A stretch of 64,000 bases of DNA from Minisyncoccota bacterium (lineage in GTDB: Bacteria > Patescibacteriota > Minisyncoccia > Phycocordibacterales > Phycocordibacteraceae). This document shows, piece after piece, positions 2,853-50,351 of this stretch (position 1 is its first letter; every line of letters starts with the position of its first letter). The notes beneath the pieces are model-generated. The model did no database searches, was not told where the DNA came from, and saw only the letters and a list, made by a program, of their open reading frames with translations. The position numbers and the translations under genes are program-made. Location: contig JALHOO010000003.1 in assembly GCA_022842945.1 (NCBI GenBank), positions 14,458-78,457 on the forward strand. The letters run 5' to 3'.

Positions 2853-3487
2853 GAAGACTTCTGTGCTCTGTGCTTGAGGTAGAGATAGGCAAGGATGCCA
2901 AGGGTTATACATACAAGGAGTCCAAGAAGGAGTGTCTCAATGGTCTTGAAACGTGCAAGGAGCATGCCGGCAACCTCAAGTCCTGCGTACCCTGCATAGA
3001 GGAAGAATGCATCGCGCACAATAGAGCCAATGAAGGTAGAGAATATAAAGAGGCGGAGGGGTATCTTGAGTACGCCGCTTCCGGCACTTATAACGGCACT
3101 TGGCACAAACGGCAGCATGCGAAGCACTGTAAGGAGAACATAGTCTTTCCAGCCGTTCCCAAGGCGCTGTCCGAACGATTCTATCTGCGCATGCGTAACG
3201 CCTATAAGGGAACCAAGACGTCCTGCAAGAATATCCTCTGCCTTGTCTGCGATGACATACACGACGAGTGCGCCCAGGAGCTTTCCGAAAGCCGCAACTA
3301 CCGCGAGGCCAAAGAGCATGAGAAGGGTATATCCCTGTACCTGTGCCAAAGAGCCCATCACCAGCATCACAGGTCCAGACGGAATAGGAGCGATAATCTC
3401 CTCTACAAAGGAAGAGACTGCCGCAAAGACGGGAAGGGGGAGGATATCAGCGAGAGAGATAACCAGTTCTTCAAGGGCGTGCAACAT
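2849..3487 (-). CDS. DedA/SNARE-associated (TVP38/TMEM64-like) family membrane protein
   Basis: Multi-TM protein containing the DedA-type core GSLAQVQGYTLLMLFGLAVVAAFGKLLGALVVYVIADKAEDILAGRLG and FVPSAVISAGSGVLKIPL. An alternative start exists at 3505. Confidence 0.7.
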   Translation of the reverse strand: MLHALEELVISLADILPLPVFAAVSSFVEEIIAPIPSGPVMLVMGSLAQVQGYTLLMLFGLAVVAAFGKLLGALVVYVIADKAEDILAGRLGSLIGVTHAQIESFGQRLGNGWKDYVLLTVLRMLPFVPSAVISAGSGVLKIPLRLFIFSTFIGSIVRDAFFLYAGYAGLEVAGMLLARFKTIETLLLGLLVCITLGILAYLYLKHRAQKSS

Positions 3488-46741: not shown

Positions 46742-47644
46742 ATGGCATCAACCCTCTACCAACAGCGTTCACGCAATGTGCTCAAGACCTATGCCCTCAT
46801 GGCTGGGTTCTTGGTTGTAGTTATTGCTATTGGGTGGGCGATCTCTTGGTACTACGGCAACCCAGCCATCCTCTACGGCGCGGTAGTCTTCTCCCTCATC
46901 ATGAACGTAGGGAGCTACTGGTTCTCGGATAAGATTGCGCTTTCGATGAATGGCGCACGCCCGGCCTCGCGAGAGGAGTTCTTCGATCTCTATACCGTTA
47001 CGGAGAACCTCGCCATAACAGCGGGGCTTCCCATGCCTCGACTCTACGTTATTGAAGATCCCGCACCCAACGCATTCGCAACTGGACGAGACGAGAAGCA
47101 TGCGGTTGTTGCCGTCACCACCGGACTTCTTGCGATACTCGACCGCACAGAGCTTGAGGGTGTTATCGCGCACGAGCTCGCGCACATCCAGAACAAGGAC
47201 ATGCTCGTTATGACGGTTGCGGTTGTGCTTGCAGGGTTTGTGGCAATTGTCGCTGACATCTTCCTTAGGATGTCTTTGTTTGGTGGAGGCGGACAGGAGC
47301 GTGACAGCAGGGCAGGTGTTCTCTTTATGGTGCTTGCGGTTGTAGCAATTATCCTTGCACCCATCGCCGCCCAGCTCATCCAGCTCGCTATCTCTCGAAG
47401 GCGTGAGTTCCTCGCCGACTCTTCAGGCGCTCTTCTTACGCGCTATCCCGAGGGCCTCGCGTCTGCACTCCAGAAGATTGCCAGCGATGGTACGCCGATG
47501 CGCCGCGCGAATCACGCAACGGCGCACCTCTTCATAGGAAATCCGTTTGGAAGTCAGGCGGGGAAGTTCATGAACAAATTGTTTGCGACACACCCGCCGG
47601 TTGAAGCAAGGGTTGCGGCACTTATGGGCAGCAAGGCAGAGTAG
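46742..47644 (+). CDS. htpX: Protease HtpX (M48 family zinc metalloprotease)
   Basis: Four TM helices, HELAHIQNKD (HExxH) and a downstream EFLAD motif. Confidence 0.85.
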   Translation: MASTLYQQRSRNVLKTYALMAGFLVVVIAIGWAISWYYGNPAILYGAVVFSLIMNVGSYWFSDKIALSMNGARPASREEFFDLYTVTENLAITAGLPMPRLYVIEDPAPNAFATGRDEKHAVVAVTTGLLAILDRTELEGVIAHELAHIQNKDMLVMTVAVVLAGFVAIVADIFLRMSLFGGGGQERDSRAGVLFMVLAVVAIILAPIAAQLIQLAISRRREFLADSSGALLTRYPEGLASALQKIASDGTPMRRANHATAHLFIGNPFGSQAGKFMNKLFATHPPVEARVAALMGSKAE

Positions 47645-47687
47645 AAAGCTGTACACAGAAAGTACACAAGTTTTATAGATATTTTAT

Positions 47688-47721
47688 CTGTGCTTTATCT
47701 GAAATCCGTACCATTAGTTTA
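47688..47721 (+). terminator. Perfect 14-bp-stem hairpin (htpX terminator candidate). Its 3' arm contains the first ATG of the homing-endonuclease ORF
   Basis: GAAATCCGTACCAT-TAGTTT-ATGGTACGGATTTC followed by TTCGCTT. Confidence 0.5.
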
Positions 47722-48392
47722 TGGTACGGATTTCTTCGCTTCAGTATCCTAAAAAGAGTCACCGGAAAGTGGTTACACTTCCTGATCCTTCGATTGAGCT
47801 TGCAGAGTTCTTCGGCATCATGATGGGTGACGGGGGAATCAACAATGCGTGGCAGGCGAATATTTGTCTCAACTCAGTTGCAGACAAAGACTTCGTCGTC
47901 TATGTCTGCACAGCTATAAAGAAGCTTTTTGGAATTCAACCATCTGTATTCAAGTGCAAGAACAGCCAAGCTACAAAGATACTCATTTCTAGTGTTGCTC
48001 TTGTCGATTTTTTAGTCGACAAAGGACTTAAAAGAGGAGGCAAGCTCAAAAATGGATTATCTATTCCGGAATGGATACTTGGTAGTACTGAATACAAAAT
48101 AGCCTGTGTGCGGGGACTTATGGATACTGACGGTTGTTTATATATTCACAAGCATACAGTTGCAGGAAAGATCTATAAGAATATTGGTCTTTGCTTTTGC
48201 AGTCACTCACCTGTAGTTATTGCGCAGATATGCGCGGTATTTGAAGAATTCGGCATTATCCCGCATATTAGTAATCAGGGCCGCAGTATCTATCTATATA
48301 AGGAAAGTGCTGTGGCTCGGTATCTTGAGGTGTTTAGTACCTTAAATGAACGTATACGTTCGGTATACAAGAAATTCGGAGGCGTCTCATAG
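47721..48392 (+). CDS. LAGLIDADG-family homing endonuclease (double-motif, free-standing)
   Basis: Two motifs, LAEFFGIMMGDGGI and VRGLMDTDGCLYI. The gene is AT-rich relative to its flanks and its last 15 nt overlap tRNA-Ser. Confidence 0.8.
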   Translation: MVRISSLQYPKKSHRKVVTLPDPSIELAEFFGIMMGDGGINNAWQANICLNSVADKDFVVYVCTAIKKLFGIQPSVFKCKNSQATKILISSVALVDFLVDKGLKRGGKLKNGLSIPEWILGSTEYKIACVRGLMDTDGCLYIHKHTVAGKIYKNIGLCFCSHSPVVIAQICAVFEEFGIIPHISNQGRSIYLYKESAVARYLEVFSTLNERIRSVYKKFGGVS

Positions 48393-48462
48393 CGGTCTAG
48401 TGAGCACGCTTGGAAAGCGTGTGAACCGAAAGGTTCCGAGGGTTCGAATCCCTCCGCCTCCG
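48378..48462 (+). tRNA. tRNA-Ser (anticodon GGA), no encoded CCA
   Basis: Acceptor stem GGAGGCG/CGCCTCC. Three-bp D-stem with GG in the D-loop. Anticodon stem-loop CACGC-TTGGAAA-GCGTG. Long variable arm GAACCGAAAGGTTC. T-arm GAGGG-TTCGAAT-CCCTC. Discriminator G. Confidence 0.85.
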
Positions 48463-48497
48463 CACAGATTAGTGATTAACATTAGTGTCACGCACAT

Positions 48498-49418
48498 ATG
48501 AAAGCAGTTATTTGTGAAAAATATGGACCTCCAGAGGTTTTAAAAATACGTGAAGTCGATACGCCGTCACCGAAGACTGACGAAGTCTTAATAAGAATCA
48601 TGGCTACGGCCGTTAACTCCGGCGATGTGCGAGTCCGAAGTCTCGGGGTTTCCGGAGTAATGAGAGTAGTCATGCGTGCTGTGCTCGGATTTCGTGGGCC
48701 GCGCAAACAGATTCTGGGAGTTGCGCTTTCGGGTGTCGTAGAAGCTGTGGGAGATCGAGTAACGAAGTTTAAGGTGGGTGATGAGGTGTATGCTGCTACT
48801 GGCTTCGGTTTCGGCACGTATGCGCAGTACACGACCCTGTCAGAAAACAAGGCGATTGCGCTCAAGCCTAGAAAAGCTTCGTTTGAAGAAGCAGCGGTAA
48901 TACCCTTCGGCGGTACCACGGCTCTATACTTCCTCCATAAAGCGGGCATTGAAGAGGGTAGAGGCAAAAAGGTTTTGGTGTACGGTGCTTCGGGTGCCGT
49001 TGGAACAGCAGCCGTTCAGATTGCAAAGCATTATGGTGCTGACGTAACTGCGGTGTGTGGAGAAGATGGTGTGGGCCTGGCGTCATCCCTTGGAGCCGAC
49101 ACCGTCATCGTCTACACCAAAGAGGACTTCACTACTAGTAAGGAACAGTACTCGATTATCTTTGATGCTGTGGGTAAAACTACAAAAAAAGCATGCACAC
49201 AGGTACTCGCCCCAAATGGTGCTTTTGTAACCGTAGGAGGTCTTGATACGGCGTCTGAGACCAAGGCACAGTTAGATTTCCTAAGTGAGCTGTTTGATAC
49301 GGGTGCATACAAAGCAGTTATCGACCGCACATACACACTCGATGAAATTGTCGAGGCACATCGCTATGTTGATCAGGGTACAAAGAAGGGTAATGTGGCC
49401 ATTAACATTTCCAGTTAA
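48498..49418 (+). CDS. Zinc-binding alcohol dehydrogenase / NAD(P)-dependent MDR-family oxidoreductase
   Basis: MKAVICEKYGPPEVLKIREVDTPSP..., the nucleotide-binding site VLVYGASGAVGTAAVQIAK and a GroES-like N-terminal domain. Confidence 0.8.
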   Translation: MKAVICEKYGPPEVLKIREVDTPSPKTDEVLIRIMATAVNSGDVRVRSLGVSGVMRVVMRAVLGFRGPRKQILGVALSGVVEAVGDRVTKFKVGDEVYAATGFGFGTYAQYTTLSENKAIALKPRKASFEEAAVIPFGGTTALYFLHKAGIEEGRGKKVLVYGASGAVGTAAVQIAKHYGADVTAVCGEDGVGLASSLGADTVIVYTKEDFTTSKEQYSIIFDAVGKTTKKACTQVLAPNGAFVTVGGLDTASETKAQLDFLSELFDTGAYKAVIDRTYTLDEIVEAHRYVDQGTKKGNVAINISS

Positions 49419-49501: not shown

Positions 49502-49990
49502 ATGTCTATCAAACTAGCAGTAGCATCTGCCATTCTTGCAATCGCTATAGTCGGTACAGGAGTCTTCTTCTTCATGCAAAACAACAAGGTTGCTACAGAA
49601 GAATCTGAGCGCACGTCTTTGGTTAGAGACTCAGTGCCAACGGTAGTCGAGACCGTGCAGGACTTTGAGTTTGAAATAGTGGCTTCTCCTGAGGCACGTG
49701 CCCAAGGATTGTCTGGTCGTGCAGATGTACCTCCCGGATACGGCATGCTGTTTGTGTTCGATGTGTCTGAGCGGTATGGGTTTTGGATGAAAGATATGCT
49801 CGTGTCTATCGATATCATCTGGCTTTCAGACAACGGCACCATAATCGGCATCGAGGAGAATGTCTCGCCTGCAACATACCCAACGGCGTTCCAGCCGCCC
49901 GTTCCCGTGCGTCTTGTTCTTGAGACGCGCGCGGGAGAAGCGGGAGCACGGGGATGGAGTGTGGGAACACGGATTCCACTCCCGCTCTAG
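49502..49990 (+). CDS. DUF192 domain protein (secreted)
   Basis: N-terminal signal/TM region, then ARAQGLSGRADVPPGYGMLFVFD..YGFWMKDMLVSIDIIWLSDNGTII, matching DUF192. Confidence 0.7.
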   Translation: MSIKLAVASAILAIAIVGTGVFFFMQNNKVATEESERTSLVRDSVPTVVETVQDFEFEIVASPEARAQGLSGRADVPPGYGMLFVFDVSERYGFWMKDMLVSIDIIWLSDNGTIIGIEENVSPATYPTAFQPPVPVRLVLETRAGEAGARGWSVGTRIPLPL

Positions 49991-50004: not shown

Positions 50005-50035
50005 GCTTGCGCGGATTCTTTCAATTGTTCGGACC
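50005..50035 (-). terminator. Terminator after rnpB
   Basis: Minus strand GAAUCCGCGCAAGCGGGUUC followed by UUUCAU. Confidence 0.55.
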
Positions 50036-50037
50036 GG

Positions 50038-50351
50038 ACTATAAGCCGAATTCTGTCTAGGACGACCATCTATCTGGGACGTACGTTGCCGTACGCCTCG
50101 AGCGGCGCTCCCGCTTTCACGGGCACGGCCTTGCACAGCGGTAAGGATTTAGCCGTTTCAGTCTGACGTTGCAGTCAGCCCATCCTCCAAGAAGGATCTC
50201 TAGTCTTTCGACATCGAGCGTTTCTGTTCGCACCTCGCGCATCACTGCGGACGGGCGTTACCCGCTACCATGCTGCTCCTAAGAGCCTGTGTTCGGACTT
50301 TCCTCCCTACCTCCCTAAAGGAGGGTAGAGCGATCGTCACATCCGGTCCTC
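50038..50351 (-). ncRNA. rnpB: RNase P RNA (rnpB), bacterial type, compact (~314 nt)
   Basis: The minus strand reads GGACCGGAUG...GGGAGGUAGGGAGGAAAGUCCGAACACAGG...GGUAACGCCCG...CGUGAAAGCGGGAGCG...ACAGAAUUCGGCUUAUAGUCCGGUCC. This contains the universal GGAGGAAAGUCCG, GGUAACGCC and ACAGAAnnCGGCUUA blocks. P1 pairs GGACCGGA with UCCGGUCC. Confidence 0.8.

Follow-up and report, generated by a model that had tools for sequence, protein, structure and literature searches.

Homing endonucleases residing in essential genes are thought to persist via self-splicing introns and inteins or by sitting beside their target. Two mitochondrial endonuclease genes of fungi, Allomyces atp6-ORF360 and the one in Ophiostoma rps3, reportedly lie in protein genes and carry a copy of the displaced gene end. 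The synthetic “Cleave and Rescue” (ClvR) drives couple a nuclease, which destroys an essential gene, to a rescue copy resistant to cleavage. Free-standing endonucleases of phages spread by “intronless homing”, as described for T4 SegB in a transfer RNA (tRNA) gene cluster (review PMC2988022), and the LAGLIDADG genes known from the candidate phyla radiation (CPR) lie inside insertions of ribosomal RNA (rRNA) genes, the most detailed survey of them containing no mention of tRNA (PMC11270868). Here, we analyse a LAGLIDADG gene fused to a tRNA-Ser(GGA) gene in a stretch of 64,000 nucleotides (nt) from a Minisyncoccota bacterium (contig JALHOO010000003.1), called the window below. We consider it likely that this free-standing gene belongs to a tRNA-Ser-fused family and forms a mobile cassette of promoter, open reading frame (ORF) and replacement tRNA, which targets the tRNA-Ser(GGA) gene.

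The ORF starts with ATG, occupies 47721..48392 on the forward strand and encodes a two-domain LAGLIDADG homing endonuclease of 223 amino acids (aa), as indicated by the ORF call, the homologues and the AlphaFold2 (AF2) fold. On the same strand, its end runs into an intact tRNA-Ser(GGA) gene, placed at 48378..48463 by ARAGORN and at 48378..48462 by the Rfam tRNA model (52.1 bits). Both the ORF and the tRNA calls give an overlap of 15 nt (48378..48392): the last four sense codons and the stop (GGA GGC GTC TCA TAG) represent nt 1-15 of the tRNA, the TAG coinciding with nt 13-15 in the D-loop, and the ORF has no stop of its own. The motifs FFGIMMGDGG (47808..47837, +) and GLMDTDGCLY (48114..48143, +) include the codons of the putative catalytic residues Asp37 (47829-47831) and Asp137 (48129-48131), and the G+C content is 0.41 in the ORF vs 0.53 in the flanks. 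An earlier reading of the window from its letters alone (the original prediction) had described this ORF between htpX and tRNA-Ser(GGA), both its motifs, the 15-nt overlap and its AT-richness, and all of these were confirmed.

Linkage to tRNA-Ser characterises the entire family, which is large and located in Patescibacteria, rather than the window alone. By scanning one genome per GTDB species, relatives were identified in 380 genomes; 80 of the loci were fetched (L numbers below denote loci fetched in this and the other scans). In all 77 loci not truncated by a contig end, tRNA-Ser lies directly 3′ of the ORF; the two overlap in 59 of these loci, typically by 14, 15, 23 or 24 nt, while a distance of 1-76 nt separates them in 15 and the ORF is interrupted in 3. 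The order LemA-(MazG)-HtpX-ORF-tRNA is common to about 30 of the 80 loci. At least 98 of 120 homologues have C-termini resembling translated tRNA-Ser 5′ ends, in two reading frames: C-terminal FGGVS/G/A corresponds to GGAGGCGT, and WRDARVV to T plus GGAGAGATGCCCGAGTGGTT. Moreover, the anticodon tracks the subfamily, since relatives with more than about 43% identity are linked to tRNA-Ser(GGA) and those with 37-41% to tRNA-Ser(GCT) or tRNA-Ser(TGA). The GCT/TGA-linked relatives are longer (about 335-350 aa). This longer subfamily (L060-L080) has an N-terminal extension with a conserved R-T-L-x-D-W-K-R-E-K, weakly resembling an Xre-type helix-turn-helix, and some of its members come from metagenome-assembled genomes (MAGs) labelled Omnitrophota or Planctomycetales.

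The protein has 796 homologues, nearly all of 220-233 aa, the best 120 being 57-80% identical to it, and many of them are annotated as LAGLIDADG family homing endonucleases from Patescibacteria MAGs. In a 35-sequence alignment, the Asp residues ending the two motifs, D37 (GDG) and D137 (DTDG), are invariant; motif 1 is kept in 119 and motif 2 in all of the 120 homologues. A profile search, proposed in the original prediction as a check, gave a divided answer: the window protein alone scores 20.0 bits with Pfam LAGLIDADG_3 (PF14528), below the curated cut-off of 22.5 (PF14528, PF03161 and PF00961 were the families considered), whereas PF14528 is precomputed on homologues 57-80% identical to it and reaches 32-42 bits in the long relatives. 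The family assignment therefore follows from the homologues, the invariant residues and the predicted fold, not from the Pfam score of the window protein. The AF2 model built on the same alignment (pLDDT 89.6, pTM 0.87) predicts the alpha-beta-beta-alpha-beta-beta-alpha topology twice in tandem. Its top Foldseek match in PDB is I-Tsp061I (2dch, E 6.9e-12, TM 0.65/0.71), other top matches being endonuclease-bearing VMA inteins, I-AniI, the I-OnuI family and similar enzymes; ranks 1-45 are LAGLIDADG enzymes, endonuclease-bearing inteins or bI3 maturase, and WhiA appears at rank 46. Direct sequence searches (PDB, NCBIfam, PHROGs) gave weak matches only, to endonuclease parts of inteins. By its predicted fold, the ORF product is a single-chain LAGLIDADG enzyme with the catalytic residues in place, and presumably a nuclease.

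Remnants of tRNA genes flank many of the relatives. Among 62 occupied loci of the GGA type, 16 have a 5′ stub of the canonical tRNA-Ser(GGA), nt 1-24/26 (GGAGGCGTCGCATAGTGGTCTAGTGC), which precedes the start codon by 41-45 nt, or by 10-33 nt in four loci, and ends at nt 24-26, reaching as far as nt 29 in two loci; about nine further occupied loci have, at this distance, only a partial stub, GGTCTAGT(G). For 12 of the 16 cases, stub and functional tRNA from one locus were compared, and in 10 of these the stub resembles the canonical type B more than its own functional tRNA (L048 ties and L009 is close). For example, the stub of L005 matches the canonical sequence in 26/26 positions vs 17/26 for its own tRNA, and that of L058 in 24/24 vs 15/24. 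Since the stub is closer to the canonical sequence, the functional tRNA is no duplicate of this stub but a different gene. L009, L058 and L022 also have 3′ stubs of the old tRNA, located downstream of the functional one, and the acceptor strand of the 3′ stub in L009 matches the 5′ stub of this locus. Stub-like sequences also precede the ORFs of the GCT/TGA subfamilies. In the sister locus of the window, L081/L164, the hairpin/start region aligns to tRNA nt 2-31 in 23/30 positions, and none of 1000 shuffles aligned as well. Three loci without the ORF (L116, L124 and L101) contain a 5′ stub, a 60-105 nt spacer and a whole tRNA, two of them also a 3′ stub; by their layout, these scars look like cassettes that lost the ORF. 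Because of the 5′ and 3′ stubs, the target looks like the tRNA gene itself and not the spacer, with the adjacent tRNA being a cargo.

The tRNAs linked to the ORF differ from those found elsewhere. The canonical D-arm, GGTC[TG]AGTGC[GA]C, is present in 3/74 linked tRNAs vs 37/47 at loci free of the ORF (Fisher p 2e-18), the two samples being drawn differently and not phylogenetically independent. The tRNA of the window differs from that of the empty locus L083 (local “type B”) only by two pair swaps, both compensated: that in the D-stem (T at 48387, A at 48403) coincides precisely with the stub breakpoint, and the other is in the T-stem.

To sample loci independently of the ORF, a metagenome scan was anchored on HtpX and the 80 closest HtpX relatives (62-86% identity) were analysed. 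A tRNA-Ser(GGA) lies downstream on the same strand in 46 of these loci, only 4 of which have the ORF, and this presence/absence pattern supports the mobility claimed in the original prediction. In at least 17 empty loci, the tRNA follows the htpX stop by 9-34 nt, and the only recurrent feature of this spacer is a TGcTATAA box located about 10-13 nt before tRNA nt 1. Decayed endonuclease genes were not found in the larger htpX-tRNA gaps of the empty loci by a hidden Markov model search of six-frame translations. The insertion displaces the -10 box of the empty sites, in line with the earlier claim that the endonuclease gene must carry the tRNA promoter. The clearest comparison is between the occupied L092 and the empty L090, which come from sister samples and are 99.97% identical over 2892 nt upstream. 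Their divergence begins 13 nt before the htpX stop, after which L090 has the spacer and a canonical tRNA; in L092, a partial stub is followed by the ORF and by another tRNA-Ser(GGA) gene. Because the two are near-identical upstream yet differ in occupancy, the element has been gained or lost. A second near-identical pair of this kind and the right-hand junction of L090/L092 were not found among the fetched loci. The window and L081 have HtpX proteins 85% identical and endonucleases 67% identical, with empty relatives lying between them. Mobility is also in keeping with the 3 interrupted copies among the 77 and with a G+C content of the ORF lower than that of the flanks in 58 of 59 loci. Judged by these comparisons, the distribution is the pattern of a long-resident selfish gene, sporadically gained and lost.

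We suggest the following mechanism. Three elements would make up the mobile unit: a promoter of the extended -10 type, the ORF of the endonuclease and a complete tRNA-Ser. In 34 of 61 loci, a TGnTAnnnT box (extended -10) has its end 5-8 nt ahead of the start codon, and this placement suggests a leaderless mRNA running on into the tRNA; endonuclease and tRNA are probably co-transcribed. The enzyme would cut the canonical tRNA-Ser(GGA) gene near the junction of D-arm and anticodon stem, and repair of the break from an occupied allele would copy the promoter, the ORF and the variant tRNA in between the stubs. Of the resident tRNA, nt 1-24/26 would persist as a 5′ stub, accompanied in some cases by a 3′ stub, while the cassette tRNA with its different D-arm presumably escapes cutting and takes over from the destroyed essential gene; function would be restored by replacement, not by splicing. 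If the target site extended over the D-arm/anticodon-stem junction and the anticodon arm, this would account for the restriction of each subfamily to one isoacceptor, and the divergence of L090/L092 from within the htpX end is what co-conversion of the flank would give. The window copy is probably a processed, old insertion with trimmed edges. We lean, by no wide measure, towards the broader view that this is a natural “cut and replace” drive: a LAGLIDADG superfamily of at least 380 Patescibacteria species representatives, which invades essential tRNA-Ser genes with a cleavage-resistant replacement tRNA fused to the ORF end, has GGA, GCT and TGA subfamilies, and is represented in the window by an intact GGA member.

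A number of observations weigh against this mobile-cassette reading. The window itself contains no stubs, as the D-arm and T-arm patterns match the functional tRNA only, and the history of its copy is therefore deduced from relatives. The position of the cut and the immunity of the linked tRNA would follow from breakpoints and from an association, the samples of which carry the bias noted above. L105 is occupied, yet its tRNA is fully canonical; L167 and L168 keep the canonical D-arm and have altered flanks of the anticodon loop. More complex histories are needed for L048, in which a decayed tRNA follows the ORF and the functional one lies 76 nt further, for L006 with a 14-nt tRNA-like remnant before its tRNA, and for L124 with two stubs of different types. 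An inverted piece of the D-arm does not fit either: in 12 of 61 loci, GGTCTAGTGC, a gap of 14-19 nt and GCACTAGACC lie directly 5′ of the promoter box, at -55 to -18 from the ORF start (L001, L008, L009, L013, L016, L017, L051, L092 and others). This repeat consists of the end of the tRNA stub (GGTCTAGTGC) and its opposite-strand copy (GCACTAGACC) abutting the TGnTATAAT box, and it is present in the recent insertion L092. Identities of the endonuclease and of HtpX show a weak, though significant, correlation (r 0.42, Mantel p about 0.0005) and no very recent transfer between lineages was seen; from both, much of the inheritance may be vertical. Among viral contigs (IMG/VR), searched for a phage vector, no close relative was found, the best having 34% identity. 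That relative stands in L171 (423-1146), followed by tRNA-Ser(GGA), on a contig that may be either a misclassified CPR contig or a genuine phage copy.

Part of these data would agree with an enzyme that is no longer an active driver, the cassette moving by ordinary recombination after DNA uptake or being kept since the tRNA needs transcription through the ORF, with the protein conserved for some other reason. The partial congruence with host HtpX, the lack of homology stubs at the window copy and L105 beside its canonical tRNA speak for it, as does the G+C content of the ORF, which follows that of the host (r 0.84). We nevertheless regard this explanation as unlikely, even if it is the best surviving of the rivals, because both catalytic motifs are retained in 119 of 120 homologues, the stub breakpoints are precise and recur at nt 24-26, the canonical D-arm is strongly depleted in the linked tRNAs, and interrupted copies exist, as a decay cycle predicts.

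Next comes the possibility that the ORF is a plain free-standing homing endonuclease with its homing site in the htpX-tRNA spacer, the tRNA being a mere neighbour and the overlap incidental. This is close to the original prediction, which supposed the invasion of a conserved intergenic site, and it agrees with the window, where the insert is bordered by the htpX stop and tRNA nt 1 and has no stubs, and with the existence of a 9-34 nt spacer at the empty sites. However, that spacer is short and not conserved except for the -10 box, htpX is upstream in only about 30 of 80 loci vs tRNA-Ser downstream in 77/77 whatever the upstream gene, the subfamilies follow the anticodon, many copies are flanked by tRNA stubs, and the exchange seen between the near-identical L090 and L092 includes the tRNA itself. 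We therefore give this explanation little credence: of the earlier interpretation, the free-standing and mobile nature of the gene stands, while the tRNA gene is a more likely target than the spacer.

It is still less probable that we deal with a domesticated LAGLIDADG protein, maturase-like or WhiA-like, which serves tRNA-Ser transcription or maturation. Such a role would explain the co-transcription and the constant adjacency, and the strict tRNA-Ser linkage, the highly conserved sequence of constant length and the presence of bI3 maturase and WhiA among the Foldseek matches are in its favour. However, a domesticated gene should be near-universal, whereas this one is sporadic, being found in only 4 of 46 close relatives with the same tRNA, and gene content differs even between the near-identical strains L090 and L092. 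The stubs show gene disruption, and the catalytic Asp is invariant here; in WhiA, the catalytic Asp residues are lost.

We give almost no weight to an intron-encoded ORF with mis-delimited exons (in a tRNA or rRNA intron), which the many CPR LAGLIDADG genes inside rRNA insertions (PMC11270868) and the archaeal intron-encoded enzyme as the best structural match might suggest, because the downstream tRNA is complete with 52 bits, no group I, group II or other intron RNA is present in 47300-48800 (Rfam E<=1), no rRNA lies nearby, and a complete tRNA makes any upstream stub redundant. The intein context fails too, as no extein was found and the weak NCBIfam matches fall on endonuclease parts of inteins only; thus the gene is free-standing, as had been claimed. 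An integrase-borne island at the tRNA gene was rejected, the insert having no tyrosine or serine recombinase and the stub being the 5′ part of a tRNA rather than a 3′-end duplication.

Between the htpX stop and the ORF start of the window copy lie 76 nt of AT-rich sequence (47645..47720, +), in which a tRNA stub is not recognisable, the alignment to the 5′ part of the tRNA being no better than in shuffles. A block of this leader, ACACAAGTTTTATAGATATTTTATCT, is common to the window and L161, L162 and L166. At its end, a hairpin (47701..47734, +) is formed by 14 perfect pairs between the arms GAAATCCGTACCAT (47701-47714) and ATGGTACGGATTTC (47721-47734) across a 6-nt loop, tagttt, which had been omitted when the palindrome was originally described. 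Folding gives -23.5 kcal/mol and z -7.9, with equally good folds in 0/200 shuffles. The ATG (47721-47723) represents the first three bases of the 3′ arm, as the earlier reading had it, and TACCAT in the 5′ arm, 6 nt before the ATG, occupies the position of TATAAT in other cassettes; a simple scan of the hairpin and leader found no match to the sigma-70 promoter consensus. The supposed termination of htpX transcripts by this hairpin finds no support, as the hairpin has no T-tract and a simple terminator scan detected no intrinsic terminator in it. TATAAA within the conserved SVYKK codons just 5′ of the tRNA was considered as an embedded tRNA promoter and set aside, since the conserved last T is missing from it.

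Conservation of the start-codon hairpin extends over the window’s subclade: in 7 of its 9 loci (the sisters being L161, L162, L164, L166, L168 and L170), a hairpin with covarying arms pairs the ATG. The arm pairs differ between loci (GAAATCCG/CGGATTTC, GAGATCCG/CGGATCTC, GAGACG/CGTCTC, GATACG/CGTATC), two further registers occur in L168 and L170, and the z scores of these examples range from -2.1 to -7.4. The closest relatives, L161 (80% identity) followed by L162, L164, L166 and L170, have the leader block and hairpin in common with the window, and the cassettes outside the subclade lack a start-codon hairpin. By analogy with I-TevI, SegB and MobE of T-even phages, pairing of the start codon would keep transcripts that read through from htpX silent, T4 offering a precedent for a hairpin that controls the translation of an endonuclease (review PMC2988022); the conserved hairpin thus probably blocks translation of such transcripts. 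Transcripts beginning inside the hairpin would lack the 5′ arm and be translatable. Perhaps, RNase P cutting at tRNA nt 1 would in turn remove the stop codon of the ORF from the mRNA. Rare ribosomes on the endonuclease-tRNA RNA make sense because the ORF ends within the tRNA.

As to the surroundings, the window insert contains the ORF and the tRNA only. Its neighbours are LemA, MazG and HtpX on one side, htpX (46742-47644, +) being identified by Peptidase_M48 (E 5e-34), and an alcohol dehydrogenase (ADH) and DUF192 on the other. In the window, a zinc-ADH/quinone-oxidoreductase-like gene (48498-49418, +) separates the tRNA-Ser from DUF192 (49502-49990); the tRNA of L161 and L170, which are among the closest relatives, is directly followed by DUF192, and that of L162 by a 102-aa ORF. 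Because of these differing downstream genes, the 3′ flank of the window tRNA is also variable. About 1.6 kb past the tRNA-Ser locus is a bacterial RNase P RNA of class A (50026-50350, -, 129.8 bits), and in the sister locus L166 a 90-aa GIY-YIG ORF (3020-3292, -) lies about 850 nt downstream of tRNA-Ser. Strain polymorphism was looked for at the window locus, and all 7 contigs with an identical HtpX have the window’s arrangement. Two short-read contigs with the exact HtpX of the window (L206, L207) break just past the start-codon hairpin or within the tRNA, probably because of the 34-nt palindrome rather than of strain variation.

Two motifs recur downstream of the tRNA, and no Rfam family matches either of them. 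The first, GAAAACGAAATCGGATTT..GCCGAAATGGGGTCGCGCCGAAGGCGCGAC, follows tRNA-Ser(GGA) in occupied and empty loci (L003, L017, L090, L095, L107), and independent MAG contigs L014, L019, L027 and L045 end inside its GC hairpin, 46-47 nt past the tRNA. The second, GTATCGGnAGACCCGAGTGCC, is located 10-40 nt after the tRNA-Ser of all three isoacceptors (L005, L006, L029, L034, L064, L067, L073, L080, L147, L152) and is not present in the window.

If the cut-and-replace interpretation is true, breaking a tRNA gene and bringing its own replacement would be a third solution for homing endonucleases. It would also explain the turnover of tRNA-Ser sequences and the tRNA pseudogene stubs in CPR genomes, and yield compact single-chain meganucleases (about 220 aa) that might be characterised for engineering, their targets being related yet different for each isoacceptor. 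For annotation, Patescibacteria ORFs that extend into a tRNA-Ser gene are real and should be left at full length. Our search of the full-text literature found no description of such a LAGLIDADG/tRNA-Ser arrangement, although its coverage is incomplete and absence from it is no proof. In structure, the enzyme is a LAGLIDADG family member of the ordinary kind, and the element is of real interest at the family level.

Among described systems, the free-standing endonucleases of the T4 SegB type are similar in that an intronless endonuclease gene lies between or next to conserved genes, the flanking DNA is apparently co-converted, and occupied genomes are, here presumably, protected by sequence differences; hairpins that block read-through translation, with a promoter inside the hairpin, would be a further likeness. 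However, SegB is a GIY-YIG enzyme of a phage and targets a tRNA intergenic region, whereas we deal with LAGLIDADG enzymes of bacterial chromosomes, the ORF of which is fused to a tRNA; here, the resident tRNA would be left as stubs and a whole replacement tRNA would travel along.

The LAGLIDADG enzymes of CPR rRNA insertions and archaeal rRNA introns (I-Tsp061I, 2dch; PMC11270868) have the same fold and target a conserved structural RNA gene, those of CPR being from the same phylum. They lie inside rRNA genes and are removed or tolerated, while the element described here is outside the functional RNA and supplies a second copy of it.

With the fungal mitochondrial cases, the tRNA-Ser cassette would have in common that the element brings a substitute for the disrupted host part and the displaced original becomes a pseudogene fragment. 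The difference is that a C-terminal coding segment is replaced in frame, in organelles, in those cases; here a whole RNA gene would be replaced in bacteria, by a family specialised on the isoacceptors of one amino acid. The likeness to ClvR is one of logic only, an analogy of working and not a family membership, since these drives are engineered, use Cas9, act in trans and do not home, whereas the element found here would insert at the cut site. If the proposed mechanism holds, the tRNA-Ser cassettes of Patescibacteria would represent a natural counterpart of the engineered cleave-and-rescue drives.

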